From assembly GCA_036339465.1 (NCBI GenBank), contig JAYZAY010000059.1, forward strand, positions 46,471-110,470: a stretch of DNA of 64,000 bases, given 5' to 3'. The notes beneath the pieces were generated by a model that was given only the letters and a program-made list of their open reading frames with translations, did no database searches and was not told the DNA's origin. Shown here piece by piece: positions 2,718-63,007 of this stretch (positions within the stretch are counted from its first letter, which is position 1; each line of letters starts with the position of its first letter). This DNA is from Myxococcota bacterium. Its GTDB lineage: Bacteria > Myxococcota > XYA12-FULL-58-9 > JABJBS01. The position numbers and the translations under genes are program-made.

Positions 2718-5699
2718 TTAATCCGTTGTGGATGCTTTTTCCTTTACGAATCCTTCGACTGCTTCAAAGAGGTTTTTGGTCTTTTCTGGGGTTGTCCCAC
2801 CCCCTTGGGCTAAGTCTGGTTTTCCGCCACCTCGCCCACCTACGATGGGGGCAAATTCCTTCATCATTTTTCCGGCATTAAACGTTTTCATAGCATCTTT
2901 GGTTACTCCAATTAAGAGACCTAGCTTGCCATCATTCTGGCTCGTTAAGCAAATCACCGACTTTGATAGTTTGGAGCGCAGGCCGTCGGCGAGTTCACGC
3001 ATGTCTTTGGAAGGGATCTCGCCGAGTTCGACCATAATGAGCTGATAATTATGTACTTGTTTGGCTTCGCCCAAAAGTTTGTCAGCGAGTGAATTAAGTT
3101 CTGAGCTTTGATTTTGCCGTTCTAGTTTTTCGTTTGCTCGGTTCGTCTTTTGAATGGTTTGGACCGCCCCCAAAAAGTTGCGGCTGGTATCGGTTTTGAG
3201 TTGAACGTCACCGAAATCTTGCCCGTTCATGAGGCGCGTTAGAGCAACCCACGTGTTCCTAATTTCTTTGGCTTCCGGAAATGCAAATTTTTCAGATTGG
3301 GGAAATGGGGTTGTTTCATAATTTGCTGATTGGGGAGTAGTCCCTATCTTTTCGAGTTTCGTTTTTCGTTCTTGGTAGTTTTGCATCAAATTGCGAACCG
3401 CGGTGACGATGGTGTCACTATGGAGGGGCTGATCGTGGGTCGGGTTTTCGAGATACTTTTGAAGCTCTTGAAGTTTCTTGTGTAGGGAAAGGATACGTTT
3501 TTGGGCAGCATCGCCCACTTCGGCTTCGATTCGGCGCACGCCACTCGCGATAGCTTCTTCTTTTTGGATGAGAAGTAACTCTATATCTTTGGTGTTATTG
3601 ACATGGGTTCCACCACAGAATTCGATTGAATTTCCCATGGTGATGATGCGAACCAAATCGCCGTATTTTTCTCCAAAGAGCGCCATGGCACCCTTTTCCT
3701 TTGCTTTTTCAAAAGGGAGGATATCGGTACTGACAGGAAGTCTCGCTTGTACCGCCTTGTTGACGATTGCTTCTACATGTTCGAGAGATTCAAACGGTGT
3801 TGATTCAAAGTGTGAATAATCAAAGCGTAGTCGTGATGATTCAACTAAAGATCCAGCTTGGGCTACATGATTTCCGAGAACGTCTCGAAGTGCTTCATGT
3901 AGTAGGTGAGTCGCCGAGTGGTGGGCTCTTAGTTGGCGGCGTTCATGGACCGCATATCCAGCCCAGACGTGGTCATCCGGGCGGAGGTTCTCGGTATTGG
4001 TTTCTCCCCGACCCACAGTAAGTTCAGAGATGGGCTTTCGGGATTCGCTAATGGTGACAATTGGTTTGCCGTCTAAGTCAAAGATCATGCCCCGGTCGCC
4101 GAGCTGTCCGCCGGATTCCCCATAGAATGGAGTCGGATTCAGAACAACTTCGATGGAGCCCGGTTGGGAATTTTCGGTTTCCTGGTTCCGCTGAATGATG
4201 GATTTTATTTGAGTTTTGGTGGTTAGGTATTCAATTCCGTCAACTTCGAATATCTGCCATTCACCACTACGCTCAGCCAACGGGACTTGTTCATCGGGAT
4301 AGCCCACAAAAGAAATTTGACCGAGATTTTGGGCGATTTCCATGTAAACATCGGCCACCGCTTCTTCGCCTATTTTGGAGTTTCGGCTACGTGAGCGCTG
4401 TTGTTCCATGGCGGCATCGAAACCTGCATGGTCGATGGATAGAGAGTGCTCCGAAGCGATTAGCTCTGTGAGATCTTTGGGAAATCCGTAGGTATCGTAA
4501 AGCTTGAAAATAGTTTCGCCGGAAAGTGTTTTTTCTCCATCGGGTAAATGACGGATCTCTTCGGATAGGATTCTAAGGCCGGAATCCATCGTTCGACGGA
4601 AGTTTTGCTCTTCTAGATCCACTACTTTTTGGATTAAAGAGGAAGCTTCTTTGAGTTCGGGATAGACAGGACTGAGTTGCTCCACAACGTCTTTACATAT
4701 TTTACTGAGGAATAGCTTGTCGAAACCCAGGCGATGTCCATGGCGAATCGCGCGGCGCATGATTCGCCGCATGACATAGCCCCGACCTTCATTTGAAGGC
4801 TGTAGGCCATCAGCAATCAGAAAAGCACTGGTCCGAGCATGATCGGCAATGACGCGCATTGAGACATCGTCTTCGGCATTACTCGACTGATATTTCTTGC
4901 CGACAAGCTCACTGGTTTTATGTATGAGCTCCTTGAAGGCATCGGTATCGTAGTTTGTATTGAATCCAGAGATAACCGCAGCCAATCTTTCTAGTCCCAT
5001 ACCCGTATCCACGGATGGTGCAGGAAGAGGGTTTAGAAGACCGTCGGCACTTCGCTCGAATTGCATGAAGACGTTATTCCAAATTTCGATGACTCTACCG
5101 TTTTCGAAATCGTCTGGAGTAGGGTCCGAACCTGTTTCGGTATCAAAGTGTATTTCTGTGCAAGGTCCACAGGGACCCGTGTCTCCCATCATCCAAAAAT
5201 TGTCTTTCATTCCCATTTCAATGATTCGATGATCTGACAGTCCAGAAATTTTCTTCCACAGGGACTTAGCTTCGGCGTCTGGGGGGATATCTGAGGTGCC
5301 CTCAAAAACAGTCACCCAAAGCTTGTCTTTTGGAACCTGGAGTTCTTTGGTTAAGAATTCCCAGGCAAAGTGTATCGCTTCTTCTTTGAAATAATCGCCA
5401 AAAGAAAAATTTCCAAGCATTTCGAAGAACGTGTGGTGTCTATTTGTGCGTCCAACTTGTTCGAGGTCGTTGTGTTTACCAGATACTCTAAGACATTTTT
5501 GAGAAGTTGTGGCGCGACTGTAGGCGCGTTTTTCGCGGCCGACAAATAGGTCTTTGAACTGAACCATACCAGCGTTGACAAACATCAAAGTTGGGTCGTT
5601 CGCTGGAATCAGGGGCGAGGATTTTACAATGGCGTGGTTTTGTCGCGCAAAATAATCTAGGAAAGCTTGTCGAAGCTCAATTGTTGTTTTTATTGTCAT
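2718..5699 (-). CDS. alaS: Alanine--tRNA ligase
   Basis: Motifs DPTLMFVNAGMVQFK, RHHTFFEMLGNFSFGDYFK, GPCGPC and DTGMGLER; editing motifs HSATHLLH and EFCGGTH; C-Ala GGRGGGKPDLAQGGG. ATG 5699 preferred over TTG 5798 because homology starts at MTIKTT. Confidence 0.98.
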   Translation of the reverse strand: MTIKTTIELRQAFLDYFARQNHAIVKSSPLIPANDPTLMFVNAGMVQFKDLFVGREKRAYSRATTSQKCLRVSGKHNDLEQVGRTNRHHTFFEMLGNFSFGDYFKEEAIHFAWEFLTKELQVPKDKLWVTVFEGTSDIPPDAEAKSLWKKISGLSDHRIIEMGMKDNFWMMGDTGPCGPCTEIHFDTETGSDPTPDDFENGRVIEIWNNVFMQFERSADGLLNPLPAPSVDTGMGLERLAAVISGFNTNYDTDAFKELIHKTSELVGKKYQSSNAEDDVSMRVIADHARTSAFLIADGLQPSNEGRGYVMRRIMRRAIRHGHRLGFDKLFLSKICKDVVEQLSPVYPELKEASSLIQKVVDLEEQNFRRTMDSGLRILSEEIRHLPDGEKTLSGETIFKLYDTYGFPKDLTELIASEHSLSIDHAGFDAAMEQQRSRSRNSKIGEEAVADVYMEIAQNLGQISFVGYPDEQVPLAERSGEWQIFEVDGIEYLTTKTQIKSIIQRNQETENSQPGSIEVVLNPTPFYGESGGQLGDRGMIFDLDGKPIVTISESRKPISELTVGRGETNTENLRPDDHVWAGYAVHERRQLRAHHSATHLLHEALRDVLGNHVAQAGSLVESSRLRFDYSHFESTPFESLEHVEAIVNKAVQARLPVSTDILPFEKAKEKGAMALFGEKYGDLVRIITMGNSIEFCGGTHVNNTKDIELLLIQKEEAIASGVRRIEAEVGDAAQKRILSLHKKLQELQKYLENPTHDQPLHSDTIVTAVRNLMQNYQERKTKLEKIGTTPQSANYETTPFPQSEKFAFPEAKEIRNTWVALTRLMNGQDFGDVQLKTDTSRNFLGAVQTIQKTNRANEKLERQNQSSELNSLADKLLGEAKQVHNYQLIMVELGEIPSKDMRELADGLRSKLSKSVICLTSQNDGKLGLLIGVTKDAMKTFNAGKMMKEFAPIVGGRGGGKPDLAQGGGTTPEKTKNLFEAVEGFVKEKASTTD

Positions 5700-40002: not shown

Positions 40003-40995
40003 ATGCCTTCCCCACTGATTCGAAGAGCGATTTCAATTTTCACTGTGGTCACCGCTTTTGGGGTGATCCTCATGACGGGGCCCCTGTTGCTTTTGATAGC
40101 GGTGGGTGTGGATTTTCTCATGAATCGGGAAAAATTTCCCCGAAGCCGGTTTGTGGTGTTCATCGCTTGGTTTCTTTTTTGCGAGTTGGGGGGAGTGGTG
40201 TGTGCTTTGGTGATTGGCGGACTTTGCTTTTTTCCAGGGACCTCAGAAAAGACGTACGTCGCGTGGAATTTAGCTTTGCAGCGATGGTGGTCTGGTTCAA
40301 TATTCTCTGGGTTGAAACGTATTTTTTCGCTCAAGATGGAGGTTGAAGGGGTGGAGGCGACAGCCGAGGGGCCCCTGGTTGTGCTGACCCGCCATGTGAG
40401 CAGCGCCGACAGTCTTTTGCCTTCGGCACTGGTCGCCAATCGCTATCACCATAATCTCAGATTCGTCATGAAGGAAAGCCTACAATGGGACCCATGTTTG
40501 GATATTGTGGGAAACCGATTGCCCAATGCCTTCATTCCCAGGAATACGAGAGGCTCCCCTCAAGCCCTGCGCGCCATTGAAAAGGTGGGAATGGATCTCG
40601 ACTCCTCATCGGGCGTGGTGATTTTTCCCGAAGGCACGAGATTCACGCGGAGTAAGCTTGAGGTCTTGCGGACAACTTACACCAAGGGTTCCGGGCGGGC
40701 CGATCCCCATCTCTATGAACACGTGTTGCCGCCAAAGTTTGGAGGTACGGTGGCTCTATTGAAGACCGCCATTGACGCGGATATTGTTTTTTGCGCCCAC
40801 ACTGGTTTGGAGGCGGTGGGCAATATTTGGGATTTGGTCTGTGGTGATTTGATTCATCGTACCATTCGTATCCGTTTCTGGCGCGTCTCCCGGGCTGAGG
40901 TACCTGTGGATGAAGAGGCGCTCCTAAATTGGTTGGTGCAATCTTGGAAAACGCTCGATAGGGCTGTGGGGCACTTGCTGAGCCTGGGGGAATAA
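40003..40995 (+). CDS. PlsC-like lysophospholipid acyltransferase
   Basis: RHVSSAD (HxxxxD), FVMKESL, IFPEGTRFT. Confidence 0.9.
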   Translation: MPSPLIRRAISIFTVVTAFGVILMTGPLLLLIAVGVDFLMNREKFPRSRFVVFIAWFLFCELGGVVCALVIGGLCFFPGTSEKTYVAWNLALQRWWSGSIFSGLKRIFSLKMEVEGVEATAEGPLVVLTRHVSSADSLLPSALVANRYHHNLRFVMKESLQWDPCLDIVGNRLPNAFIPRNTRGSPQALRAIEKVGMDLDSSSGVVIFPEGTRFTRSKLEVLRTTYTKGSGRADPHLYEHVLPPKFGGTVALLKTAIDADIVFCAHTGLEAVGNIWDLVCGDLIHRTIRIRFWRVSRAEVPVDEEALLNWLVQSWKTLDRAVGHLLSLGE

Positions 40996-41012
40996 AGTTA
41001 AGTGAAGAAGAC

Positions 41013-41831
41013 ATGGATATAACTGCGATGATTGAAAATATGAACGCTGTGTGGGAGCAGGCCGCGGGGCCGGCAGGCATGTGGGTGCTCGGTAGTATGA
41101 CGCTTCTCTGGCTGGTTAGTTTGCCCCTGCGGGACGCGAGCATTGCCGATCTTTATTGGGGATTTGGGTATTGCATGGTGGCGGCTTTGGGGCTCCATGC
41201 TTTGGAGCAACCTCTTTTTCGGCATTGGGTTCTTGTGGCTTTGGTGGTGATTTGGGGTATGCGACTTAGCCTCTATTTAGCGATTCGCAATATCGGCCAC
41301 GGTGAGGATTTTAGGTATCGGGCTTTTCGGCGTCATTGGGGGGATAAATATCCTTTCGTGAGTTTTCTCCAGACCTTCATGCTTCAGGGTTGTTTGGTCC
41401 TTATTATTTCGTTACCGGTACAAGCTGGCCTTGTTTCCACCGCTCCGGGATTTGGACTGGTTTCCATATTGGGCTGTGTGGTGTGGGGCATTGGTTTTTT
41501 CTTTGAAGCTGTGGGCGACGCTCAACTTCGGGCTTTTAAGAAAGACCCCACCAACAAAGGCAAAATCATGCGTACGGGGTTGTGGCGCTACACCCGCCAC
41601 CCCAACTATTTTGGCGATACCTGCATTTGGTATGGGGTTTATTTGGTGGCCTGTGGTGGCGGCGGAGCGTGGTGGACTTTGCCAGGACCTTTTCTGATGA
41701 TGTTCTTTCTTTTGCGGGTCTCAGGGGTGCCCATGCTTGAGCATACCATGTCGAAACGGCCTGGCTACGATGATTATGTAGCGACCACCAGCGTATTTTT
41801 CCCCTTACCGCCCAAGAAGGTCACCCAATAG
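41013..41831 (+). CDS. DUF1295 membrane protein (steroid 5-alpha-reductase-like)
   Basis: DASIADLYWG, WGMRL, EDFRY, EAVGDAQL, GLWRYTRHPNYFGD. Confidence 0.9.
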   Translation: MDITAMIENMNAVWEQAAGPAGMWVLGSMTLLWLVSLPLRDASIADLYWGFGYCMVAALGLHALEQPLFRHWVLVALVVIWGMRLSLYLAIRNIGHGEDFRYRAFRRHWGDKYPFVSFLQTFMLQGCLVLIISLPVQAGLVSTAPGFGLVSILGCVVWGIGFFFEAVGDAQLRAFKKDPTNKGKIMRTGLWRYTRHPNYFGDTCIWYGVYLVACGGGGAWWTLPGPFLMMFFLLRVSGVPMLEHTMSKRPGYDDYVATTSVFFPLPPKKVTQ

Positions 41832-41945
41832 GAAGTGATCGATTCCCTGCTTGCTTATATTGGGATGCCCAAATAAACCAAGGCTGCGTAAAACCACAAT
41901 CCATTCTAGGATTGAGCTGATATAGCTTAGGAAGGTATAAAAACG

Positions 41946-42908
41946 TTGACCATCCGATTTGCACAGATTGAGCCCACCACACGGTGCAATTTCACCTGTG
42001 GATTTTGTACTGGCCGAAAGATGTCCCAAGGAGATCTCTCCCTTGATAGTTTCCGAAGGATTCTCGAGTTGCACCCTCAATTAGAGCATATCGAACTTCA
42101 GGGGGAGGGGGAGCCTCTTCTCAACAAGAACTTTGTTCAGATGCTTGAACTGGCCCGAGAAAGAAATATCCGTGTTTCTCTGATCACCAACGGAAGTTTA
42201 CTAACCACCGAAATGATTGATGCGATCCTACGCCTCGAAGTGATGAGCATTCATTGTTCAATGGAGTCGGCGGAGCCTCGAATGTTTCGAGAGATCAGAG
42301 GAGGTAAACTGGAAAAAGTAAGAAAGGGTCTCATGTTGCTCGTCAAGGAGCGAAATAAGAGAGGTCTTAAGTTTCCAACCATTGGGCTTGCCGTTACGGT
42401 TCTACGAAAAACAGTTGATGCTATGCCGGGTATGATTGAGCTTTATGGTGAGATGGGCCTCGATGCGGGGATCTTTGTCCAGCCCTTACAAAAGATGGCT
42501 GTCTACACACGTGCCTATGATGAGGATATGAAACGCCAGCTTCTCAGCCACGAGGATTTACACGCCTACAACAATACCTTGCGCGGAATGGATGGGTTGC
42601 AATCAATCCTCAGAAACAAGAAAAATATTTCGTCGTTTTATCGTGCCTTGGGCAAAAGTATCCAGCCCGGTGAGTCGGGGTGCCCATGGCTTTTGCACGG
42701 TACCTATATCAATTACGCTGGCGACGTGATGCCTTGCTGCACCATCAAGGATACGACGCTGTCTGGTTTGGGCCATATTCGTAACACGCCGCTTTCAAAA
42801 CTCGACGAAGGCCGCAGAAAAATGAATCAACAGATTGTTGAAGGGGCTATCCCGATGGCTTGTGAAGGATGCGGAATTGCAAATAAATTCCAGCGAAAAA
42901 AAACATAA
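41946..42908 (+). CDS. Radical SAM protein with SPASM/twitch domain
   Basis: CNFTCGFC, GEGEPLL, ITNGSLL; C-terminal CPW...GDVMPCC...CEGC. Confidence 0.9.
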   Translation: MTIRFAQIEPTTRCNFTCGFCTGRKMSQGDLSLDSFRRILELHPQLEHIELQGEGEPLLNKNFVQMLELARERNIRVSLITNGSLLTTEMIDAILRLEVMSIHCSMESAEPRMFREIRGGKLEKVRKGLMLLVKERNKRGLKFPTIGLAVTVLRKTVDAMPGMIELYGEMGLDAGIFVQPLQKMAVYTRAYDEDMKRQLLSHEDLHAYNNTLRGMDGLQSILRNKKNISSFYRALGKSIQPGESGCPWLLHGTYINYAGDVMPCCTIKDTTLSGLGHIRNTPLSKLDEGRRKMNQQIVEGAIPMACEGCGIANKFQRKKT

Positions 42909-52217: not shown

Positions 52218-52487
52218 TGCTTGGCCCCATTACCATAGGAGGGTTTCCATGAGAATGCATGGTCAAACTGAGATAGATTCACCGAGAAGTACCCAAGAAC
52301 TCCCGCAATTAATTAAGGCGACTAAGTCGGAAAAGGATGACACTGAAGGTTGGCGAAACAAGTCGTGGCGACGTCAGAGTCTCTCTTGGTCGAGAGAATG
52401 GGGCCAAGCTCGAGGCTGTCACCAGCACTAATCCACTTCATTTTGTTCAATTGCTCCGGGTGGAGTCCAGGTTTTTCGAGGATATCA

Positions 52488-55400
52488 ATGTCTAGACCTA
52501 ACACAAATACTGTCCGTGAACCCATTGCCATTATCGGACTAGGGGGCTGCCTTCCAGGAGCCTCCAATATAGAGACCTATTGGAAAAATATATGTGAGGG
52601 TCAAAGTGCCATTCGTGAAGTACCCGCTCAACGATGGAACCCAGACGACTACTATTCCGAAATCAAGACTGAACCCGATAAAACATACAGCAAGATCGGT
52701 GGGTTTTTGGATGAAGTCCCCTTTGAATCCAAGCGTTTTCGAATCCCTCCCAAAACAGCGGATTTTGTCGATAATGTTCAAAAATTGGCATTGACGGCGG
52801 TGGCGGATGCCCTAGAGGATGCGGATCTCCAATTGCGCCAAGATGCTAAAATCGGTCGAAGTTTTGATCGTGAACGCACGGCAGTGATTTTGGGTAATTC
52901 CATGGGTGGGGAGTTCGAGGACAAAACGAATCTAAGGGTTTGGTTTCCCGAAATGCGGAATTTGATTTCCAATAGTCTTGAGAAAAAGAACCTGTCCGAT
53001 TCGGAGGTGAAGTCCATCGTGGAGGAGATTGAATCCACATACAAGCAGAGACTTCCCCCGATTACCGAAGATTCTATGCCCGGTGAATTGTCCAATTGCA
53101 TTGCCGGGCGGGTGGCCAATGCTTTTGATCTATGTGGTCCGAATTTTACGACAGATGCTGCATGTGCTGCTTCAATGGCCGCGGTCAAAACAGCCTTTGA
53201 TGGTCTCCAGCTCGAAGAATTTGATATGGCGGTGGTCGGTGGGGTGGATCAGCAGATGGATCCGCCAACTTTCGTTAAGTTTTCAAAAATAGGTGCATTG
53301 TCGGCAGAAATAAGTGCGCCGTTCGATGCCCGTGCCAGTGGTTTCGTGATGGGAGAAGGGGTTGGGATTCTTGTCTTAAAAAGAGTCTCCGACGCTCTGG
53401 CCGATGGCGACAAAATTTATGCGACCATTCGCGGTATTGGCTCAGCCAGTGATGGCAAGGGTAAAGGGCTTACCGCACCTAATCCTCGGGGGCAAAAGCT
53501 TGCGGTTGCACGTGCCTACGAAAAAATAAACTTCGACATTGATTCGGTTGGATTATTTGAGGCCCATGGTACTGCGACGCCTGTGGGTGACAGGGTCGAA
53601 CTTTCGGTGTTAACGGATTTGCTACGGGAGTCTGGTATGAGTCCCAAGGAAATTCCAATTGGTTCCGTTAAGTCCATGATTGGACACCTTAAAGGTGCCG
53701 CGGGGGCAGCAGCGCTTATCAAAACAAGTCTCGCGCTCCATCACAAAGTGTTACCGCCGAGCACCAATTTCCAAAGACCTACTTCTGGGTCTCCCCTTCA
53801 TGAGAAGTATCTGTCTGTAAATACCAAGACCCAAGTCTGGAATGACTCCGAGTGTCCTCGTCGGGCCGGTGTCAGCGCGTTTGGATTTGGTGGAACGAAC
53901 TTTCATGTGGTTCTCGAAGAGCATTCAGAAAAATCACAAGAATTAAATACTAAGATAAGCCAAGAGAAAGACGAAAAAACCATGGTGACCCCCCGTAAAT
54001 CCGCGCAGCCTACATCCGATCTCAAGGGTCTTATTGTCAGTGTTCAAGAGATCTTTGCTCAGGCGACAGGGTATGAGGCCAATGAATTAGAACCGGATTA
54101 TCTCCTGGAGGCCGATCTCGGTATTGATACGGTGAAGCAGGCAGAGATTATGGCTCAGATACGTGAAACTTACTCCTTACCAAAAGAGGAAAGTTTTAAT
54201 CTATCGGAGATTCAGACGATTTCCGCGGTGGCTCAATACGTACAATCCAGAGTTTCGGTGGCTTGGGGCCAAGGGATTGGCAATGCCCCGGTTAAGGCCA
54301 CAACGGCGGTGGATGCGACCTTGCCAGCGAAAATGTTTCCTTATCTTGCGGTTGAAGGTGTGGATAAAACCGCTTTATTGAATAAGCTTACGGAGATTGA
54401 GTATGCCGATGCCTCCGCTGAGGCGAAGATTTCCTTAACCGGCCAGGTAAGACTCGTCGCTGCCGCACCAACCAAAGAGAGTTTAGATAAAAAGCTCGAG
54501 GGTATCGAAAAAGGAAGTCCTCGTATTCTGCGCAACAAAGGTGTCTATTTCTCTGCGGCGGATTCAGATTTAGACAATGGAAAGATTGCATTTCTCTTTC
54601 CTGGGCAAGGTTCACAGTATTTAAATATGTGTAAGGACCTCGCTGAGGATTATCCCGTTGTCATGGATACATTCCTGGAGGCTGACGGGATTTTAGAACC
54701 GATGATTGGTCGTAAGCTGACTGAGCTTTGTTGGCCAGCGGACATGAGTGATCCGGTACAACGCGATCTTGATTTACGGCAAACCGAAATTTGTCAGCCC
54801 GCCATGCTGGCAGCGGATATAGCACTCATGAGGCTACTTCTCGCCCATGGGATTAGGCCTGATTATGTGGTGGGCCATTCGTTGGGTGAGTATGCGGCGT
54901 GTGTGGCTGCGGGTGTTTTGAGCTTTGCGGATGCAATTTATGCCGTTAGTGCTCGCGGTCGAGAGATGGCGAGTGTGAAAGTGGATGATTGTGGATTAAT
55001 GGCGGTGGTCTTGGGGGGCGTAGAGGAAGTTGAGCCGATTATTTCCTCTGTTGAAGGGTATGTGGTGTCTGCGAATAAGAATTGTTTTAAGCAAACCGTT
55101 ATCGCGGGGGAAACCAAAGCGGTGAAACAGGCGATTGAAAAATGCGTCGCTGCTGGTTTTAATTCTCGGACCATTCCCGTCTCTCACGCTTTTCATACTG
55201 AGATCGTGGCGCCGGCCACGATGCCAATGAGAAAAGTCCTCGATAATTTGGATATACGTTGTGCCGGTATTCCCATTCTTTCGAATGTAACGGGTGAGGA
55301 ATATCCCGAGTCCCCTGAGGAGATCCGGGCTCTATTGACCAAGCAGCTTGCGAGTCCTGTTGAATTCATTAAGCAGGTGGATAGCCTCTATACACGGGGG

Positions 55401-58400
55401 GTTCGGACGTTTATCGAAGTTGGTCCCAAAAAGGCAATCACTGGTTTTGTGACGAACATTTTGGAAAACCGAAAACACGTAGCTCTTTTCACCAATTACC
55501 ATAAGTTGGGTGGTCAGGAGTGTTTTCTCAATTCACTGGCCTATTTGTCCAGTCGTGGGATGACGATCGATTTTGCGGGGACTCAGCCTTCGGAAGTGCA
55601 GCGACGCCCAGAAGTTGCACCTTCGGTAAATTCGCAGCCTCTCAATCTAGCCACAGGCTCTAGCCAAACAAAGACTGTGGTCAGTGGTCTCGGTGTGGCC
55701 TTGCCGAGGGAGGATGCCTGTGGTGGTGTTGATGAGGATCTCTTTGATGAAATCCTGCGGGGAAAGAATTTCATTCGTCATTTGACCCACAAAACCCGTA
55801 CTGAGATGGCAAGCCTAAATATCACCCGAGTTGACAAGGCCAATGGTACCTTCGAAACCATGACCTCCAGTGACGAAGTGATTCAATTGTGTGGTCAGTT
55901 GAATTTGCCAGACTTGGTGGAAGATTATGGTGTGGATGCGGCACTAACTAGCGCCATTGATGCCACAACTAAATTGGCGATTGCCACTGGGATCGAAGCC
56001 TTACGAGACGCAGGGCTTCCCCTCGTACCGCGATACCGAACGACTTCCACAGGTAAAAAACTTTTTGTCGGTTATCGACTTCCTGAAAAAGTAGGGAAGC
56101 GAACCGGCGTTATTTTTGCCTCAGCCTTTCCAGGCTTGGATGAGCTAATCGCGGAGGTGACGAAATTCAATAAACAAGCCGCGAAAAACGAATCGAGCGG
56201 TGAGTCCGTCGCTTATCAATTCGACCGGAAATTTCTTTTTCGGATCCTATCGCTGGGTCATGCTCAATTTGCACAGGTGGTTGGAGCCATGGGGCCCAAT
56301 ACCCAAATAAACGCCGCCTGTGCAGCGGGAGCGCAAGCTATTGGCATTGCCAGTGATTGGATTACTTTGGGGCGTTGTGATCGAGTGGTTGTTCTCTCCG
56401 CTGACGATGCAACAAATGAATCGAGCTTTGCGTGGCTCGGTGCAGGATTCCTCGCCACTGGTGCGGCCAGTGTTGCTACGGATGCGACCAAAGCTGCGGT
56501 TCCTTTCGGAAAGAATCGCAACGGTATGATTATGGGCTGCGGTGCTGCGGCATTTGTGGTGGAAAAGGATGCAGAATGTAGAGCTCGGGGAATCTTACCT
56601 TTGGTGGAAATATTGGCGTCTAGGTTCGCCAACAGTGCCTTTCATGCCACACGATTGGAATTTGGCTCCATTCGAGAGAACTTCAATGAGTTCATCGATA
56701 CCCTTTGTTCTAAAGTTGGAATTAGCCGTGCTGAATTAGCGCGTCGTTGTTTTTTTATGTCCCATGAAACCTATACCCCCGCGAGGGGCGGGAGTTCAGC
56801 GGCCGAAATGGACGCACTCCGCGATGTCTTCGGCGACGAAGTGGGTAAAGTTCTTATTAGTAACACCAAAGGCTTTACCGGCCACCCCATGGGCGCATCC
56901 CTTGAGGATGCCGTGGCGGTGAAGGGGCTGCAGCGGGGGCTTGTTCCACCGATTGCCAATTTCACCGAAGTGGATCCAGACTTCTCAGACTTACATTTTG
57001 CTCGGGGACAAGAGGATCAGAAGCGAGACATCGGTATTCGATTTGCGGCCGGTTTTGGGTCCCAATTGGCTCTTAATGGCTATCGGCGCATCGCCACTTC
57101 GGAAAATCGGTGGCTCGATAAAGTACGATTTATGGAATGGAGCAAGGAGATGTCAGGGCTTGAAGAGCCGGCTTTCTTAATCGAGCATCGCCAATTTCGG
57201 ATTGTTGAGAAAGCGGGGAAGCCTTTGGATGAGATGAAGTTGTGGCGGGGTTTTGATCCAGGTGCGGAGGCCGTTACTGAAGATAATGCGGGTTTTGTTG
57301 TTCGTGGCGACCAGAAACCCTCGAGACAACGTTCAGAACTTCTTACGGAGATAGTGTCTCTTTTTGTGACAGAAACGGGCTATGAAGAAAGTGAATTAGG
57401 TCCCGGATTTGACCTGGAAAGTGACTTAGGAATCGATACCGTCAAGCAAGCTGAGATACTGGCCATGGTCAGAGATCGATACCCACTTGTCGACGGCGAA
57501 CTGAAACCACTGAGTGAATTGAATACGATTGATCGGCTGGTGGATTTCATCTTTTCAAAGCTTTCTGACACAGCCCATGAGTATGGCTCAGCCGCTCCTA
57601 TTGATAGCCAAGCTCCCTTATCTCGTTCGCATATTGCCTCCTTTCAATATTCCGAAGATGCAATTCGAGCCCGTGTTCTGACTATCTTTTGTGAGCAGAC
57701 TGGTTATACGCCGTCTGATTTCGAGGACGACCATCTTCTCGAAGAAGATCTCGGGATCGACACGGTGAAACAAGCAGAGGTTTTTAGTCTCTTAACGGAA
57801 GAGTTTGGTTTAGAACGGGACGAAAATTTCATTTTGGCCGATTTGAATACCGTAGGTCGAATCGTTCAGTTTGTGCAGACCTTTGAATCCATCGAGAAGT
57901 CCGATGACTTGGTGTATTCATCCGCCCAAAGTGTCTCGATGAAAATCGATTCCACCGACTACATGACCAATATTAAAATGATTTTCGCCGCCGAAACGGG
58001 CTATGAGCCAGAGGAACTCGAAGATGATTTATTACTGGAAGCGGATTTAGGAATCGATACCGTTAAGCAAGCTGAGGTTATGGCTCGCGTGCGAGAGGCC
58101 TATGGGTTGGCTCAAAGTGAAAGTTTCAATCTTTCCGATTATCAAACCTTGGAACAAATTACGCAATATGTTGCAGCCAAAGTCGATTTAAGTACCCAGG
58201 CCGATTCTCTAGAAACCGTTGCGAAAATTCCAACTCCCATTGAAGATGAGGCTTTAACCGAAACGGTGAATAACGTTAAAGCTCCGAAATTAGACCTTGG
58301 CTCATTCTCAGTTAGGCCTGTGGCGTTTGGTTGGACTGAAAATCTGACGGACATCACCTCTATTTGGAAAGGGAAAAAGGTATGGCTCTTGGGAGGTGAC

Positions 58401-61400
58401 AGCCGAATTCAGCAAGAGCTTAGAAAGGAATTTGAATTAAGTGGAGCACAAGTAAATAACGCAGACGGAAATGCCCTTGTTACCGATGATACAGGTATGG
58501 AGGGTGCCGGCCTTTCTCCAGTCCACGGGATCTTCCTACTCGATAGTCCCACTTGGCACTGTGACTCTTACCAAAGTCGTCGGAATCAAGCGCAACGTTT
58601 CATTGCCATGATCCGGGAAATATTGAAGTCGCAAGCTTGGACAAACAAGCTAGAGGCCGTTGGCGTTCTATCACTCGGTAATGGTGACCGCGGATTTGGT
58701 TATACTCCGAGTATTCCGGTTGATATTGGTGGACTCTTTTCGGGGTGGCTAAAGTCTTTGAATCGAGAATTGGCAGCCGTTCGTTGTGTGCATATTCAGA
58801 CTGAATCGTCCTTTCTCGCAACCCACGAAGGTAGGCGGGCGCTCCTAAGTGAAATGGCTTTGGGGGATAGTGCAGAAGTTAGCTATTTTCTGGGGAGGCG
58901 CTGTGTGTCCTACCTAGAGGATTCTAAAGAGCTTTCAAATCTTGAAGTTGTCATTCCTGAAGGTCTTACTGTGGTGACGGGGGGGGCGCGAGGTGTTACT
59001 TACGAGATCGCAAAGAGACTGGTCGAAAAAGGAATTAGAAGACTTGTTTTGGTGGGGCGAACTTCGTTACCGAGTCCGGAAACGGTCGAATTTATGGCGC
59101 TGAGTGAGGCGGAAAAGAAACGTCAGGCTAAGACATCATTGTCGGAAGCTTGCGGCAAGGTCACACCACTGATGGTGAAGGATTGGATTGCCGCTAAGGC
59201 AAAGCAGGTTGAAATAGCTGAGAATGTTTTGTGTTTGAATGAGATGGGTGCCGACACCAATTACGTTTCTTGTGATTTAGGCAATGAACAATCCATCGAG
59301 GGCTTGGTCAGGAATATCCGAACGAAATATGGTGAAGTAGGGCTCTTAATTCACGGTGCAGGTATTGAAGAATCTAAGTTATTTGTGGACAAAGATGATG
59401 ATTCTTTAATGCGTAGTTTTGCGCCGAAGGCCGAGGCGTTTCGGATACTTGTGGATGAACTTCAACCCAGCCGCACCCTCACCATGGGGTCTGTCGCGGG
59501 TCGTTTTGGAAATGCCAGCCAGACAGATTATGCCGCTGCCAACGATGCCTTGGCCCCTTGGAGCCGTAATTCACATAACAATGCAGTCCATGTTGATTGG
59601 ACGGCATGGGGCGACGTCGGTATGGCGATGAAATCCGGTGTGAAGGCTAGCCTAGAGAGTACTGGCGTTGAGTTTCTCCCTGCGATTTTGGGTGCTGAAA
59701 TAGGGGCCCGATTGGCTTTGAGCTCGGTGGGCGGTGAGTTTGTTGTGGCGGGGGAGTTGGGTGGCTTTACTCCTGCCCCTTCCAGTTACCGTCCCATGGG
59801 TCATCTCGATTTAGAGGAGATCGTGGAGCGTTCTCCATTTGATTCAGCGGTGATTGATGGACAGAGATGTGTCTTTCGGAAAGTGTTTCACCCAGAAGAG
59901 GACTTAGGGTTGGCGCACCACAAGATTGATGGGGTGGCTGTTTTTCCTGGCGTTTTGGGTGTGGAGTTTGGTGTTCAAGCTGCCGAACACTTTATTGGTA
60001 AACCCATGGTTGAAATAACGGAGGTTGAGTTTAAGGCTCCAATTAAGTTTCATCACGGCAAGGAACTGACTGTTGAATTCTCTGTGGAGAAAATATCGGA
60101 AACGCAATTTGATATTCAAGTGCTGTCTGTTTTTAAGACACCTAAGGGACTTGAACGAACCAAGTCGCATTTTGAGATGAAGTCGTCCATCTCTTGTCTG
60201 TCGCCTTCTGAACTCGTTCGATACCCCGTTGCCGAGTTTTGTACGCCTACCCGTAAATCGATTTACGACCTCTATTTTCATGGCGAGAGTTTTCAAGTGA
60301 TAGATTGGGTCGAGAGCTTGGCCGCAAATGGTGCGGTTGCACATAGCTTTGATTTTAAGTCTGGGTGGGTTCGCAATTTTCCGGCGGAATCCATGACAAC
60401 TTCTCCTGCTGCTCGGGAACTTGGTTTTCAAACCGCGGGTGTTTGGGAAATGAACACCACAGGCAAGATGAATTTGCCGGCGCGAATTGCGAAAGTTCAG
60501 CGGCGCAGTGCAGTGGTGGGCGAATATGCCGTTCGTGCAATTGTTAGTCAATCTCTAGAAGGCTCTGGCGCGATCGATGTTTGGGTGTACGATACCTCCG
60601 GTAATCTTTGCGATACGATGATAGGCTACGAGACCGTTGAGCTTCGCGAATTGAGTAAAGATGAATCGGCGAACTTTACCCCTTGGGATCTAGGTGGCGA
60701 TGCAACCTTGATTCATATTCAGGAAATTAAGAGGTCTATTACTCTTGACGGTGGTCGAGCTTTACTCGGTTATTTGTCGGATAAGGAGATGGCGACATAC
60801 TCTGAAAAGAAGTCAGAAAAACGTCGATTGGATTGGTCTGCGGGCCGTATTGCCTCGAAAGTGAGTCTGCAAAGACGTTTGTTTCAGGAGGAGAATATAT
60901 GGGTTCCAGCCCATCATATTTCCGTGGAGCCCAATGCGTTGGGCGAGCCGCAAGTTCTTATTGGAGGAGAGCTAAACCGGGCATGGTCGATTTCTATCAC
61001 CCATAGTGCGGGGTGGGCTTTGGCTCAGGTTGGTGAGTGTAGTAAAGAGAGATTGGGTCTTGATGTTGAATCCGTTGAATCTCGGCACCCGTCTTGGGGG
61101 AAGACCTACTTTAGTGAGAACGAACAAAAGGTTGCTTGGGAGTCAGGAGGTACTTGGCTGTTGACTGCCTGTTGGGCGGTTAAGGAGGCCTTGATGAAAG
61201 CCTTAGGGATAGGTGCCCGGGTAGATTTCAGGGAGATTGAAGTTCAGAAACACGAAGGAATTTGGAGTGTCACCCTCGCTGATTCCCTCAAAATGAGGTT
61301 GTTGGAATTGGGTGCAGGGGTTTCAGAGGTGACTGTACATCTCTTTGGGGACCGAGTTTTGGCCCGAGTGAAATTGTCGATGATTGAATCGACGGGTACG

Positions 61401-61484
61401 GTTCGGCCGAAAACAACAGAGGAGATGCCGGTGGGGCATTTCACCTCGATAGTCGCAGGTACGCGTTATGAGATAGGAGAATAA
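52488..61484 (+). CDS. Iterative type I PKS/FAS-like megasynthase: KS-ACP-AT-KS-ACP-ACP-ACP-KR-DH-PPTase (2998 aa)
   Basis: KS1 DAACAAS / EAHGT / GHLK; AT FPGQGSQ / GHSLGE / SHAFH; KS2 NAACAAG / SHETYT / GHPMG; four ACP-like repeats LGIDTVKQAE; KR TGGARGV and DYAAAN; DH HKIDGVAVFPG; PPTase SITHS / GLDVE / WAVKEALMKA. ATG 52488 with GAGG SD. Confidence 0.95.
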   Translation: MSRPNTNTVREPIAIIGLGGCLPGASNIETYWKNICEGQSAIREVPAQRWNPDDYYSEIKTEPDKTYSKIGGFLDEVPFESKRFRIPPKTADFVDNVQKLALTAVADALEDADLQLRQDAKIGRSFDRERTAVILGNSMGGEFEDKTNLRVWFPEMRNLISNSLEKKNLSDSEVKSIVEEIESTYKQRLPPITEDSMPGELSNCIAGRVANAFDLCGPNFTTDAACAASMAAVKTAFDGLQLEEFDMAVVGGVDQQMDPPTFVKFSKIGALSAEISAPFDARASGFVMGEGVGILVLKRVSDALADGDKIYATIRGIGSASDGKGKGLTAPNPRGQKLAVARAYEKINFDIDSVGLFEAHGTATPVGDRVELSVLTDLLRESGMSPKEIPIGSVKSMIGHLKGAAGAAALIKTSLALHHKVLPPSTNFQRPTSGSPLHEKYLSVNTKTQVWNDSECPRRAGVSAFGFGGTNFHVVLEEHSEKSQELNTKISQEKDEKTMVTPRKSAQPTSDLKGLIVSVQEIFAQATGYEANELEPDYLLEADLGIDTVKQAEIMAQIRETYSLPKEESFNLSEIQTISAVAQYVQSRVSVAWGQGIGNAPVKATTAVDATLPAKMFPYLAVEGVDKTALLNKLTEIEYADASAEAKISLTGQVRLVAAAPTKESLDKKLEGIEKGSPRILRNKGVYFSAADSDLDNGKIAFLFPGQGSQYLNMCKDLAEDYPVVMDTFLEADGILEPMIGRKLTELCWPADMSDPVQRDLDLRQTEICQPAMLAADIALMRLLLAHGIRPDYVVGHSLGEYAACVAAGVLSFADAIYAVSARGREMASVKVDDCGLMAVVLGGVEEVEPIISSVEGYVVSANKNCFKQTVIAGETKAVKQAIEKCVAAGFNSRTIPVSHAFHTEIVAPATMPMRKVLDNLDIRCAGIPILSNVTGEEYPESPEEIRALLTKQLASPVEFIKQVDSLYTRGVRTFIEVGPKKAITGFVTNILENRKHVALFTNYHKLGGQECFLNSLAYLSSRGMTIDFAGTQPSEVQRRPEVAPSVNSQPLNLATGSSQTKTVVSGLGVALPREDACGGVDEDLFDEILRGKNFIRHLTHKTRTEMASLNITRVDKANGTFETMTSSDEVIQLCGQLNLPDLVEDYGVDAALTSAIDATTKLAIATGIEALRDAGLPLVPRYRTTSTGKKLFVGYRLPEKVGKRTGVIFASAFPGLDELIAEVTKFNKQAAKNESSGESVAYQFDRKFLFRILSLGHAQFAQVVGAMGPNTQINAACAAGAQAIGIASDWITLGRCDRVVVLSADDATNESSFAWLGAGFLATGAASVATDATKAAVPFGKNRNGMIMGCGAAAFVVEKDAECRARGILPLVEILASRFANSAFHATRLEFGSIRENFNEFIDTLCSKVGISRAELARRCFFMSHETYTPARGGSSAAEMDALRDVFGDEVGKVLISNTKGFTGHPMGASLEDAVAVKGLQRGLVPPIANFTEVDPDFSDLHFARGQEDQKRDIGIRFAAGFGSQLALNGYRRIATSENRWLDKVRFMEWSKEMSGLEEPAFLIEHRQFRIVEKAGKPLDEMKLWRGFDPGAEAVTEDNAGFVVRGDQKPSRQRSELLTEIVSLFVTETGYEESELGPGFDLESDLGIDTVKQAEILAMVRDRYPLVDGELKPLSELNTIDRLVDFIFSKLSDTAHEYGSAAPIDSQAPLSRSHIASFQYSEDAIRARVLTIFCEQTGYTPSDFEDDHLLEEDLGIDTVKQAEVFSLLTEEFGLERDENFILADLNTVGRIVQFVQTFESIEKSDDLVYSSAQSVSMKIDSTDYMTNIKMIFAAETGYEPEELEDDLLLEADLGIDTVKQAEVMARVREAYGLAQSESFNLSDYQTLEQITQYVAAKVDLSTQADSLETVAKIPTPIEDEALTETVNNVKAPKLDLGSFSVRPVAFGWTENLTDITSIWKGKKVWLLGGDSRIQQELRKEFELSGAQVNNADGNALVTDDTGMEGAGLSPVHGIFLLDSPTWHCDSYQSRRNQAQRFIAMIREILKSQAWTNKLEAVGVLSLGNGDRGFGYTPSIPVDIGGLFSGWLKSLNRELAAVRCVHIQTESSFLATHEGRRALLSEMALGDSAEVSYFLGRRCVSYLEDSKELSNLEVVIPEGLTVVTGGARGVTYEIAKRLVEKGIRRLVLVGRTSLPSPETVEFMALSEAEKKRQAKTSLSEACGKVTPLMVKDWIAAKAKQVEIAENVLCLNEMGADTNYVSCDLGNEQSIEGLVRNIRTKYGEVGLLIHGAGIEESKLFVDKDDDSLMRSFAPKAEAFRILVDELQPSRTLTMGSVAGRFGNASQTDYAAANDALAPWSRNSHNNAVHVDWTAWGDVGMAMKSGVKASLESTGVEFLPAILGAEIGARLALSSVGGEFVVAGELGGFTPAPSSYRPMGHLDLEEIVERSPFDSAVIDGQRCVFRKVFHPEEDLGLAHHKIDGVAVFPGVLGVEFGVQAAEHFIGKPMVEITEVEFKAPIKFHHGKELTVEFSVEKISETQFDIQVLSVFKTPKGLERTKSHFEMKSSISCLSPSELVRYPVAEFCTPTRKSIYDLYFHGESFQVIDWVESLAANGAVAHSFDFKSGWVRNFPAESMTTSPAARELGFQTAGVWEMNTTGKMNLPARIAKVQRRSAVVGEYAVRAIVSQSLEGSGAIDVWVYDTSGNLCDTMIGYETVELRELSKDESANFTPWDLGGDATLIHIQEIKRSITLDGGRALLGYLSDKEMATYSEKKSEKRRLDWSAGRIASKVSLQRRLFQEENIWVPAHHISVEPNALGEPQVLIGGELNRAWSISITHSAGWALAQVGECSKERLGLDVESVESRHPSWGKTYFSENEQKVAWESGGTWLLTACWAVKEALMKALGIGARVDFREIEVQKHEGIWSVTLADSLKMRLLELGAGVSEVTVHLFGDRVLARVKLSMIESTGTVRPKTTEEMPVGHFTSIVAGTRYEIGE

Positions 61485-61486
61485 CA

Positions 61487-63007
61487 ATGTCTTCACTATT
61501 GAATACTAAAGACAAGAAGGAAGTTGAGGATAAACCTGTTCTAGCGCGGGGGGCGGAGTTAACGGCTCGGGGTCGCTTAGAGCAGCTATTTGATGCTGGT
61601 ACCTTTATGGAACTGGATAAGAACATCCATCATCGATCACGGTCTTTTGGGATGGATAAGAGAGAAATTCCAGGTGATGGAGTTGTGTGTGGTTTTGGGG
61701 AAGTGAATGGTCAAACCGTCTATGCTTATTCGCAGGATCGAAACGTGCTGGGTGGTTCCCTTGGTGAGGCCCATGCCCAAAAGATTGTCAAAATTATGGA
61801 TATGGCCGGAAAATCAGGTTGTCAAATTGTGGGTATTAACGACTCTGGTGGTGCTAGGATTCAAGAAGGAGTTGAGGCTTTGGCGGGTTACGGTGAGATT
61901 TTCCGCCGAAATGTGGCATATTCAGGCGTGATACCGCAAATATCCCTGATCATGGGACCTTCGGCCGGAGGCGCTGTCTACTCACCAGCGCTTACCGATT
62001 TTGTGGTGATGATTGATAAAAAGAGTTATATGTTTGTGACCGGGCCAAAGGTTGTTGCTGCAGTTACCAGTGAGAATGTCGACACGGAAACACTTGGAGG
62101 CGGGCGAGTTCATGCAGAGAAGAGTGGGGTTGCCCATTTCTTGACCGGTAGTGAGGTTGAGGCACTCGAGACTGCTCGCGAAATACTTTCCTATCTACCG
62201 GCGAATAATTTTGGGGATGCCCCTTTTCTCCCCACCGACGATCTGCCGCATCGGAAGGTTCCTGAATTGGAATCGATTGTCCCAAAAGAAACGAATCGTC
62301 CCTACGATGCTCAATTGGTCATTGATGCCGTATTTGACCGCGATAGCTTCTTAGAGGTTCGAGGCAATTGGGCGCAAAATATTCGCGTGGGTTTCGCGAG
62401 GCTTGGTGGGTATCCGGTTGGTGTTGTCGCAAATAACCCGATGTTTATGGCAGGTGTTGTGGACATCGATGCGGCTCGTAAAGGGGCGCGTTTCGTTCGG
62501 ACCTGTAATGCTTTTGGTATTCCTCTTGTGACTTTGATCGATGTTCCCGGTTTTCTCCCAGGAAAAGAGCAGGAGCACGCGGGGATTATCGATCATGGTG
62601 CGAAATTAGCCTATGCCTATTGTGAAGCCACGGTGCCCAAACTAAGTGTTATTTTGCGGAAGTCCTACGGTGGTGCTTATATTGTGATGAGTAGTAAGCA
62701 TGTGGGTGGAGATATCAACCTCGCTTGGCCTCAAGCTGAAATTGCGGTGATGGGAGCAGGTGGTGCGGTTGAGATTTTGCATTCGAAAGAACTCAAAAAT
62801 CATCCTGAACCAGCGAATCGCTCCAAGGAACTCAGTGATGAGTACAATGAGCGCTTTGCAAATCCTGGGGTCGCAGAGGCTCGCGGTTTCCTAGACGCTG
62901 TCATTCAGCCGGCCGAGACCCGCTTTACGCTTTATCGCAGTTTGAGAGCAGTGCTAGCCAAAAGAGAGTCGCTGCCAGAAAAACGCAACGGTAATGTACC
63001 CATGTAG
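61487..63007 (+). CDS. Acyl-CoA carboxylase carboxyltransferase (beta) subunit, PccB/AccD-like
   Basis: GDGVV, GGSLG, DSGGARIQEG, AGGAVYSPALTD, DVPGFLPG, HGAKL, RKSYGGAY, AEIAVMGA; starts 2 nt after the PKS stop. Confidence 0.95.
   Translation: MSSLLNTKDKKEVEDKPVLARGAELTARGRLEQLFDAGTFMELDKNIHHRSRSFGMDKREIPGDGVVCGFGEVNGQTVYAYSQDRNVLGGSLGEAHAQKIVKIMDMAGKSGCQIVGINDSGGARIQEGVEALAGYGEIFRRNVAYSGVIPQISLIMGPSAGGAVYSPALTDFVVMIDKKSYMFVTGPKVVAAVTSENVDTETLGGGRVHAEKSGVAHFLTGSEVEALETAREILSYLPANNFGDAPFLPTDDLPHRKVPELESIVPKETNRPYDAQLVIDAVFDRDSFLEVRGNWAQNIRVGFARLGGYPVGVVANNPMFMAGVVDIDAARKGARFVRTCNAFGIPLVTLIDVPGFLPGKEQEHAGIIDHGAKLAYAYCEATVPKLSVILRKSYGGAYIVMSSKHVGGDINLAWPQAEIAVMGAGGAVEILHSKELKNHPEPANRSKELSDEYNERFANPGVAEARGFLDAVIQPAETRFTLYRSLRAVLAKRESLPEKRNGNVPM

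Follow-up and report, generated by a model that had tools for sequence, protein, structure and literature searches.

The window analyzed here is a stretch of 64,000 nucleotides from a Myxococcota bacterium (contig JAYZAY010000059.1 of assembly GCA_036339465.1), in which a single open reading frame (ORF) encodes a megasynthase whose acyl carrier protein (ACP) domains all have threonine at the position of the cofactor-bearing serine. The ORF (52350-61484, + strand) encloses the stretch 54018-58185 in which this had first been noticed, and its frame runs over 9.1 kb with zero stops or frameshifts. The listed TTG start at 52350 probably lies too far upstream; the likely start is the ATG at 52488, which is directly preceded by GAGGA, agrees with the N-termini of homologs, places the first ketosynthase about 10 residues from the N-terminus, and gives a protein of 2998 aa. 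The domain order by Pfam is KS-ACP-AT-KS-ACP3-KR-DH-PPTase, i.e., ketosynthase (KS), carrier, acyltransferase (AT), second ketosynthase, three tandem carriers (here written ACP3), ketoreductase (KR), dehydratase (DH), and 4'-phosphopantetheinyl transferase (PPTase); no enoyl reductase (ER) or thioesterase domain was found in the Pfam scan. The motifs that we take to mark the active sites, namely Cys/His/His of KS1, GHSLG and HAFH of the AT, the KR tyrosine, and HxxxGxxxxP of the DH, are all present in the translation, which agrees with the first-pass annotation in describing these sites as intact. KS2, for which Shulse and Allen use the label 'CLF', retains the active-site Cys and both His here and in every aligned relative and, judging from these residues, is probably a second working ketosynthase rather than a chain-length factor.

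ACPs carry 4'-phosphopantetheine on the Ser of a (G/L)xDS motif, and to our knowledge all known carrier domains have a Ser holding this cofactor arm. The four carrier domains of the megasynthase, delimited with a domain hidden Markov model (HMM) built from the window, translate as LEADLGIDTVKQAEI, LESDLGIDTVKQAEI, LEEDLGIDTVKQAEV, and LEADLGIDTVKQAEV; all four share the motif DLGIDTVKQAE, with Thr594, Thr1697, Thr1805, and Thr1904 at the acceptor positions. Translation of 54018-58185 and of the whole ORF bears out the earlier observation that Thr stands in place of Ser in all four ACPs, together with the codons reported for them (Table 1), of which the one at 54129 was read directly, and the domain HMM found no Ser-type carrier anywhere in the protein, as had also been stated. 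A sequencing or assembly error and a recent duplication were considered and rejected, in line with the same annotation, since the codons differ, ACP4 shares only 54, 39, and 42% identity with the other three carriers, and hundreds of independent assemblies contain the motif. The serine of the (D/E)xGxDS motif is missing from 4/4 domains, while profile and fold are those of PF00550 (PP-binding): the match scores 70.3 bits (cut-off 20.8), three stretches pass individually, and phmmer against solved structures aligns the Thr to the cofactor Ser of PigH ACP and AcpM. An AlphaFold model of ACP4, based on a 28-sequence alignment, has a mean predicted local distance difference test (pLDDT) score of 88.5 and helices at 5-20, 41-55, and 71-83 in the numbering of the modelled domain, so that helix II begins at Thr41. 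Foldseek comparison of this model with solved type II ACPs gave template modeling (TM) scores of 0.74-0.86 at root-mean-square deviations of 1.4-2.2 Å. Since Thr41 opens helix II in a canonical ACP fold, the model places the Thr at the exact phosphopantetheine site of ACPs.

Table 1. Megasynthase ORF, its domains, and the adjoining carboxyltransferase gene (window positions).
Feature	Position	Strand	Residues	Details
Megasynthase ORF	52350..61484	+		3044 aa from TTG 52350
KS1, ketosynthase	52518..53771	+	57-474	PF00109 and PF02801; Cys/His/His motifs in translation
ACP1, between KS1 and AT	54006..54266	+	553-639	Thr594, ACG 54129-54131
AT, malonyl-type acyltransferase	54591..55466	+	748-1039	PF00698, E 2.4e-41; GHSLG, HAFH
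KS2	55707..57179	+	about 1120-1610	Cys and both His kept
ACP2	57315..57578	+	1656-1743	Thr1697, ACC 57438-57440
ACP3	57639..57899	+	1764-1850	Thr1805, ACG 57762-57764
ACP4 (domain modelled)	57936..58196	+	1863-1949	Thr1904, ACC 58059-58061
KR, ketoreductase	58965..59612	+	2206-2421	PF08659, E 4.3e-26
DH, PKS-type	59859..60653	+	2504-2768	PF21089 and PF14765; HxxxGxxxxP
C-terminal Sfp-type 4'-phosphopantetheinyl transferase domain	60753..61382	+	2802-3011	PF01648, 40.9 bits (cut-off 25)
Acyl-CoA carboxylase carboxyltransferase subunit	61487..63007	+		PF01039, E 2.5e-179; begins 3 nt past synthase stop

To see whether the Thr is peculiar to this protein, homologs were collected in three ways. 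Sample (a) came from a word-index search with the triple-ACP region, which gave 3544 proteins at E ≤ 0.001; every carrier is of the Thr type in 116 of the best 120 of these, a figure biased toward Thr as the shared five-residue words include the motif itself. For sample (b), a search with the KR-DH region, blind to the motif, added 112 further proteins, 110 of them with detectable carriers, and here 101/110 were all-Thr and seven had some Ser. Sample (c) was likewise motif-blind and used KS2 in a HMMER scan of 1.84 billion representatives (503 matches at E ≤ 1e-30); among the best 150 of these 503, 130 had carriers, comprising 116 all-Thr, five all-Ser, and nine mixed proteins, or by domain (n = 372) 347 Thr, 18 Ser, and seven with another residue or a gap. 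Pooling samples (a) and (b) with the window yielded 233 proteins with 1025 carrier domains (998 Thr, 24 Ser, three other). Throughout, the Thr co-occurs with the architecture KS-AT-KS-ACPn-KR-DH, as the first-pass annotation had proposed to check, and the contrary picture that it had named, of homologs mostly reading DS beside a decaying locus, was not found, as Thr dominates in the homologs. Within the 1025 domains, the block E-A-D-L-G-(I/V)-D-T-V-K-Q-A-E is 88-100% conserved per column (I and V taken jointly) and the remainder of the domain is variable. An alternative acceptor nearby was ruled out, since the same domains contain no other conserved Ser or Cys (Ser at most 0.26 in any non-acceptor column, no notable Cys). 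At 44 Thr sites from the window and 12 relatives' loci, the codons are ACG (24), ACC (15), ACA (3), and ACT (2); with all four Thr codons in use, selection acts on the amino acid, and the synonymous variation indicates purifying selection. On these alignments, Thr is best described as a trait of the family and not as a sign of decay.

Judged by source names, the family reaches across Myxococcota/Bradymonadia, Desulfobacterota, Bacteroidota, Chloroflexota, Calditrichota, and Proteobacteria, with archaeal members in Thermoplasmatota and Heimdallarchaeota. Named sources include Desulfoluna butyratoxydans, Bradymonas sediminis, Lujinxingia vulgaris, Microvenator marinus, and Candidatus Chloroploca, and metagenome-assembled genomes (MAGs) among the matches are labeled Saprospiraceae, Calditrichaeota, Woeseiaceae, Myxococcota, Alphaproteobacteria, Thermoplasmatota, and Heimdallarchaeota; the nearest named relatives in the KR-DH search are Myxococcota/Bradymonadia MAGs. 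Among 40 related genomes and the window's own, the triple-ACP query matches 30/41. Ten of the 11 best relatives' loci are of the Thr type, and the eleventh (L029) holds a canonical PfaA with DLGIDSIKRVEILG, which supports the LGIDSIKR reading previously given for PfaA-type ACPs. The scan of genome contigs yielded only distant relatives (28-41% identity), which are of the Ser type (DLGIDSIKKAQ); they were rejected as family members and kept as a sister group. Furthermore, we found 13 short proteins with a Thr-type carrier, but did not retain free-standing Thr-type ACPs as a separate class, since most of the nine that were read resemble pieces of arrays, some of them truncated mid-motif. Three such short ORFs (P0369, P0370, and P0372), with a single Thr-type carrier each, lie on one 36.9-kb metagenome contig and may represent either a tandem array split by frameshifts or truly discrete Thr-type ACPs.

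Serine and threonine also alternate within the family. In the KR-DH tree, proteins with the Ser form of the same motif (DLGIDSVKQAE) occupy five separate positions; the tree is unrooted, so that no direction of change is claimed. All carriers of P0134, P0136, and P0145 read DLGIDSVKQAE or DLGIDSIKQAE, and these proteins form a small clade adjoining that of the window; in the same tree, the all-Ser P0225 (Heimdallarchaeota) stands beside the Thr-type P0233. In P0097, P0055, P0141, and P0217 the first carrier is Ser and the remainder are Thr. Four in-array domains of sample (c) have a residue without a hydroxyl group at the acceptor position (Q, D, G, P), and these have lost VKQAE too. The acceptor site thus takes only a hydroxyl side chain, and loss of the hydroxyl coincides with decay of the partner-recognition helix, as expected of a true acceptor residue. 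As a separate observation, P0233, P0245, P0257, and P0260 each have one decayed carrier (e.g., DLGQDEEALA or DLGVKDADLQG) between intact Thr-type copies, which would be a dead spacer in an otherwise working array. ACP1 of the window is an additional Thr-type carrier between KS1 and AT. In our sample, a carrier at this place is found only together with a fused PPTase, i.e., in all five relatives' loci with such a fusion and in P0134 and P0136; P0141 and P0217 have their one Ser-type carrier upstream of the Thr array. A carrier upstream of the array may be a separate loading carrier.

The transferase that ends the megasynthase bears the marks of an Sfp-type enzyme. Eight of its residues (H2885, G2903, D2905, E2907, W2942, K2945, E2946, and K2950) are 98-100% conserved in 112 fused domains of all-Thr proteins and align with the segments NISHS, GIDIE, and WSMKESFIK of Sfp; H2885, D2905, E2907, E2946, and K2950 correspond to its Mg- and CoA-site residues (Sfp numbering derived from the alignment). 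On the match to PF01648, these residues, and the Sfp alignment, the domain is predicted to be catalytically intact, and the earlier wording 'cognate PPTase domain' is justified. Compared with Sfp of Bacillus subtilis (PDB 1QR0, 4MRT), to residues 87-185 of which it aligns weakly (E 0.026), the domain of the window is fused to its own substrate and falls into a distinct clade. A family PPTase HMM scored it at 238.5 bits, versus 46.9 bits for the genome's stand-alone Sfp-type PPTase on contig 62. Within the family, a homologous domain is fused in 125/233 proteins, of which 113 are all-Thr, four all-Ser, six mixed, and two without a detected carrier. Eight relatives' loci of 9-20 kb, all of the Thr type, have the PPTase either fused (five) or as an adjacent gene (three). 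The same PPTase family also serves Ser-type sister enzymes.

In comparison with known systems, the megasynthase is closest by NCBIfam to PfaA (TIGR02813), at 862 bits and hence below the cut-off of 1010.1. It shares with canonical PfaA the tandem ACPs after KS-AT and before KR-DH, and a motif frame seen also in the PfaA of L029. It differs in the acceptor (Thr, not Ser), in VKQAE replacing IKRVE, in a second KS within the same polypeptide, and in having no pfaB, pfaC, or pfaD nearby, none of which was found among the annotated neighbors in the window. Enediyne PKSE, a self-priming iterative polyketide synthase (PKS) of the order KS-AT-ACP-KR-DH-PPTase, resembles the megasynthase in domain order, with the same C-terminal KR-DH-PPTase order in one iterative polypeptide and likewise no ER. 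It has just one ACP, of the Ser type, and is not known to contain a second KS.

The closest match in architecture is the 'Type R' secondary lipid synthase of five named genomes, one each of Koribacter, Solibacter, and Elusimicrobium and two of Roseiflexus (Shulse and Allen 2011). According to that article (PMC3098273), Type R consists of a single pfaA homolog of the order KS-MAT-CLF-ACP(3-6)-KR with a PPTase gene alongside, its product is not known, and in Koribacter an acetyl-CoA carboxylase gene lies in between. The window, with KS-AT-KS-ACP3-KR-DH, a PPTase, and an adjacent carboxyltransferase, matches this description in its architecture and in its PPTase and carboxylase neighbors. Differences from Type R as described there are the fused PPTase, the extra carrier between KS1 and AT, and a 'CLF' that keeps Cys/His/His. 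The word threonine has 0 occurrences in PMC3098273. The acceptor is named as serine in PMC4882568 and in PMC13291983, a 2026 paper on polyunsaturated fatty acid (PUFA) synthases that checks 'the conserved Ser residue required'. Passages of PMC11744666, PMC8007912, PMC3995230, and PMC5945825 had no bearing on the question. A full-text literature search, the coverage of which leaves out most subscription journals and supplements, returned nothing on phosphopantetheine linked to Thr or on a Thr acceptor.

We consider it quite probable that the four domains are working carriers, in which the dedicated PPTase primes the Thr before they serve an iterative synthase. They lack one defining feature of ACPs, the serine, and have the others, and are most likely ACPs with a new acceptor residue. 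As parts of an iterative PfaA-like 'secondary lipid' synthase, they would receive 4'-phosphopantetheine from CoA through the C-terminal Sfp-type PPTase, or through the neighboring gene where the PPTase is unfused, on the hydroxyl group of the Thr that opens helix II, which would give O-phosphopantetheinyl-threonine. The holo-carriers would then pass malonyl and growing acyl thioesters among AT, KS1/KS2, KR, and DH, with malonyl-CoA delivered by the adjacent carboxylase. Both the modification of the Thr and the assignment of the dedicated PPTase as the responsible enzyme are, on sequence grounds, most likely. For the family at large, we lean toward O-phosphopantetheinyl-threonine as a natural and widespread modification, in which the Thr-type carriers of a large group of lipid megasynthases are served by a clade of Sfp-type priming PPTases inherited along with them. 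With Thr as acceptor, the carriers would be orthogonal to the housekeeping PPTases and perhaps to ACP hydrolases as well; that the Thr serves to insulate them from these enzymes, or else to stabilize the phosphodiester, is speculation.

Several points weigh against priming on Thr. One is the E. coli AcpP S36T mutant, which represents the same residue change at the same structural position and which is reported to be non-functional and not modifiable by 4'-phosphopantetheine (PMC3340395); at least one PPTase thus accepts Thr poorly. In the present family, by comparison, which is large and has its own PPTase, the Thr is the conserved natural state. Furthermore, no residue cleanly separates Thr-type from Ser-type systems among the family PPTases compared, which leaves the Thr without a visible enzymatic counterpart; positions 2888, 2907, and 2912 are weak candidates, differing inconsistently and in only part of the Ser-type systems. 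Nearly all homologs are metagenomic and none has a known product. Finally, sample (a) favors Thr by its design, which samples (b) and (c) correct.

The S36T mutant also speaks for the alternative that the first-pass annotation had raised, in which the Thr domains are never loaded and act as scaffolds or docking modules while KS, AT, KR, and DH are served in trans by another ACP, of the Ser type, and so do the free Ser-type carriers of the genome, AcpP and carriers on small ORFs. We nevertheless regard this alternative as unlikely. It would leave a linked and catalytically conserved PPTase without a substrate in its own operon, and no small ACP gene was found beside the synthase among the annotated ORFs of the window and the eight relatives' loci, where 20 neighbor ORFs, not all, were scanned. 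A scaffold would not be expected to keep Thr or Ser in 1022/1025 acceptor positions, nor a near-invariant helix-II motif that is lost entirely in the domains without a hydroxyl residue. Arrays of 3-8 copies are, in addition, the pattern of throughput carriers in PUFA synthases (PMC3098273). The alternative as first proposed is weakened by the linked PPTase, the Thr/Ser-only site, the motif loss, and, as far as the neighbors were scanned, the lack of a small ACP.

A further possibility is that the Thr bears a different group, for example a regulatory phosphate or some other phosphodiester derived from CoA, so that the thiol arm would be non-canonical. This seems to us very unlikely: nothing speaks for it directly, beyond the fact that the residue is unusual and the 13-residue motif exceptionally rigid, while the transferase linked to the carriers is a PPTase of the ordinary Sfp type that has every CoA- and Mg-site residue, its family serves Ser-type sisters, and a Ser form of the identical motif exists. 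That the carriers are inactive relics of a synthase that is decaying or repurposed, with Thr as a tolerated neutral replacement, is scarcely credible. Apart from the missing Ser, nothing suggests it, and it is at odds with 9.1 kb of uninterrupted frame, with catalytic motifs that are all intact, with a Thr and a flanking motif that are conserved in many phyla of Bacteria and Archaea alike, and with the purifying selection seen in the codons.

Priming on Thr throughout a very large family would run against what textbooks treat as invariant. In carrier-protein biochemistry, the serine acceptor has the standing of a universal rule, and the Ser-to-Thr exchange is used in E. coli as a control without activity (PMC3340395). 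If the proposal is true, it would add one to the known protein modifications and one to the known PPTase specificities, and carrier and PPTase would form a ready-made orthogonal pair for engineering. Motif annotation or genome mining that requires Ser, presumably with a PROSITE-type pattern, would read these carriers as inactive, so that a widespread lipid pathway would go unnoticed. The Thr motif would also give a handle on an uncharacterized lipid synthase in many uncultured marine and sediment lineages, archaea included, and would bear on the question of who makes fatty-acyl lipids.

Regarding the surroundings of the synthase, mreBCD, a PBP2-type transpeptidase gene, rodA, and a divergent bactofilin gene lie upstream, and the carboxyltransferase gene (Table 1) followed by an AlgH-like gene lies downstream. 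The adjacent carboxyltransferase probably supplies malonyl-CoA; the same gene adjoins the synthase in L034, L035, L036, and L040, and carboxylase genes are present in 6/8 relatives' loci. Directly beside the Thr-type synthase, L037 (1934-7597, - strand) and L041 (14359-19932, + strand) encode a single-chain carboxylase (1858-1888 aa) that combines biotin carboxylase, biotinyl, ACC_central, and carboxyltransferase domains, of which ACC_central is typical of eukaryote-style acetyl-CoA carboxylases. A gene of the acyl-CoA dehydrogenase family (550-603 aa) lies directly 5' of the synthase in L037 (16093-17901, - strand), L040 (2401-4050, + strand), and L041 (3021-4700, + strand), and may encode the missing enoyl-reducing or desaturating partner; in the window, no gene of this family adjoins the synthase.

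Elsewhere in the genome, the eight other PP-binding domains are all of the Ser type, and belong to AcpP (C27), a 2343-aa synthase (C22), a nonribosomal peptide synthetase (NRPS)/PKS cluster (C33), and small ORFs (C54, C51). The single further PPTase, the stand-alone Sfp-type ORF on contig 62, exists for these eight carriers. As the genome has a bona fide fabF (570 bits) besides AcpP, the megasynthase is a secondary and not a housekeeping synthase. The 2343-aa ORF (C22:13110-20189) is another megasynthase, with ordinary Ser-type carriers, and the cluster on C33 (73160-80567) comprises ORFs of 1103, 858, and 603 aa with Ser-type carriers. One ORF of the NMO family is located on C35. About 10 kb upstream of the synthase (window 40003-42908), a lipid-related group of genes encodes a PlsC-type acyltransferase, a DUF1295/steroid-reductase-like membrane protein, and a radical SAM/SPASM enzyme.

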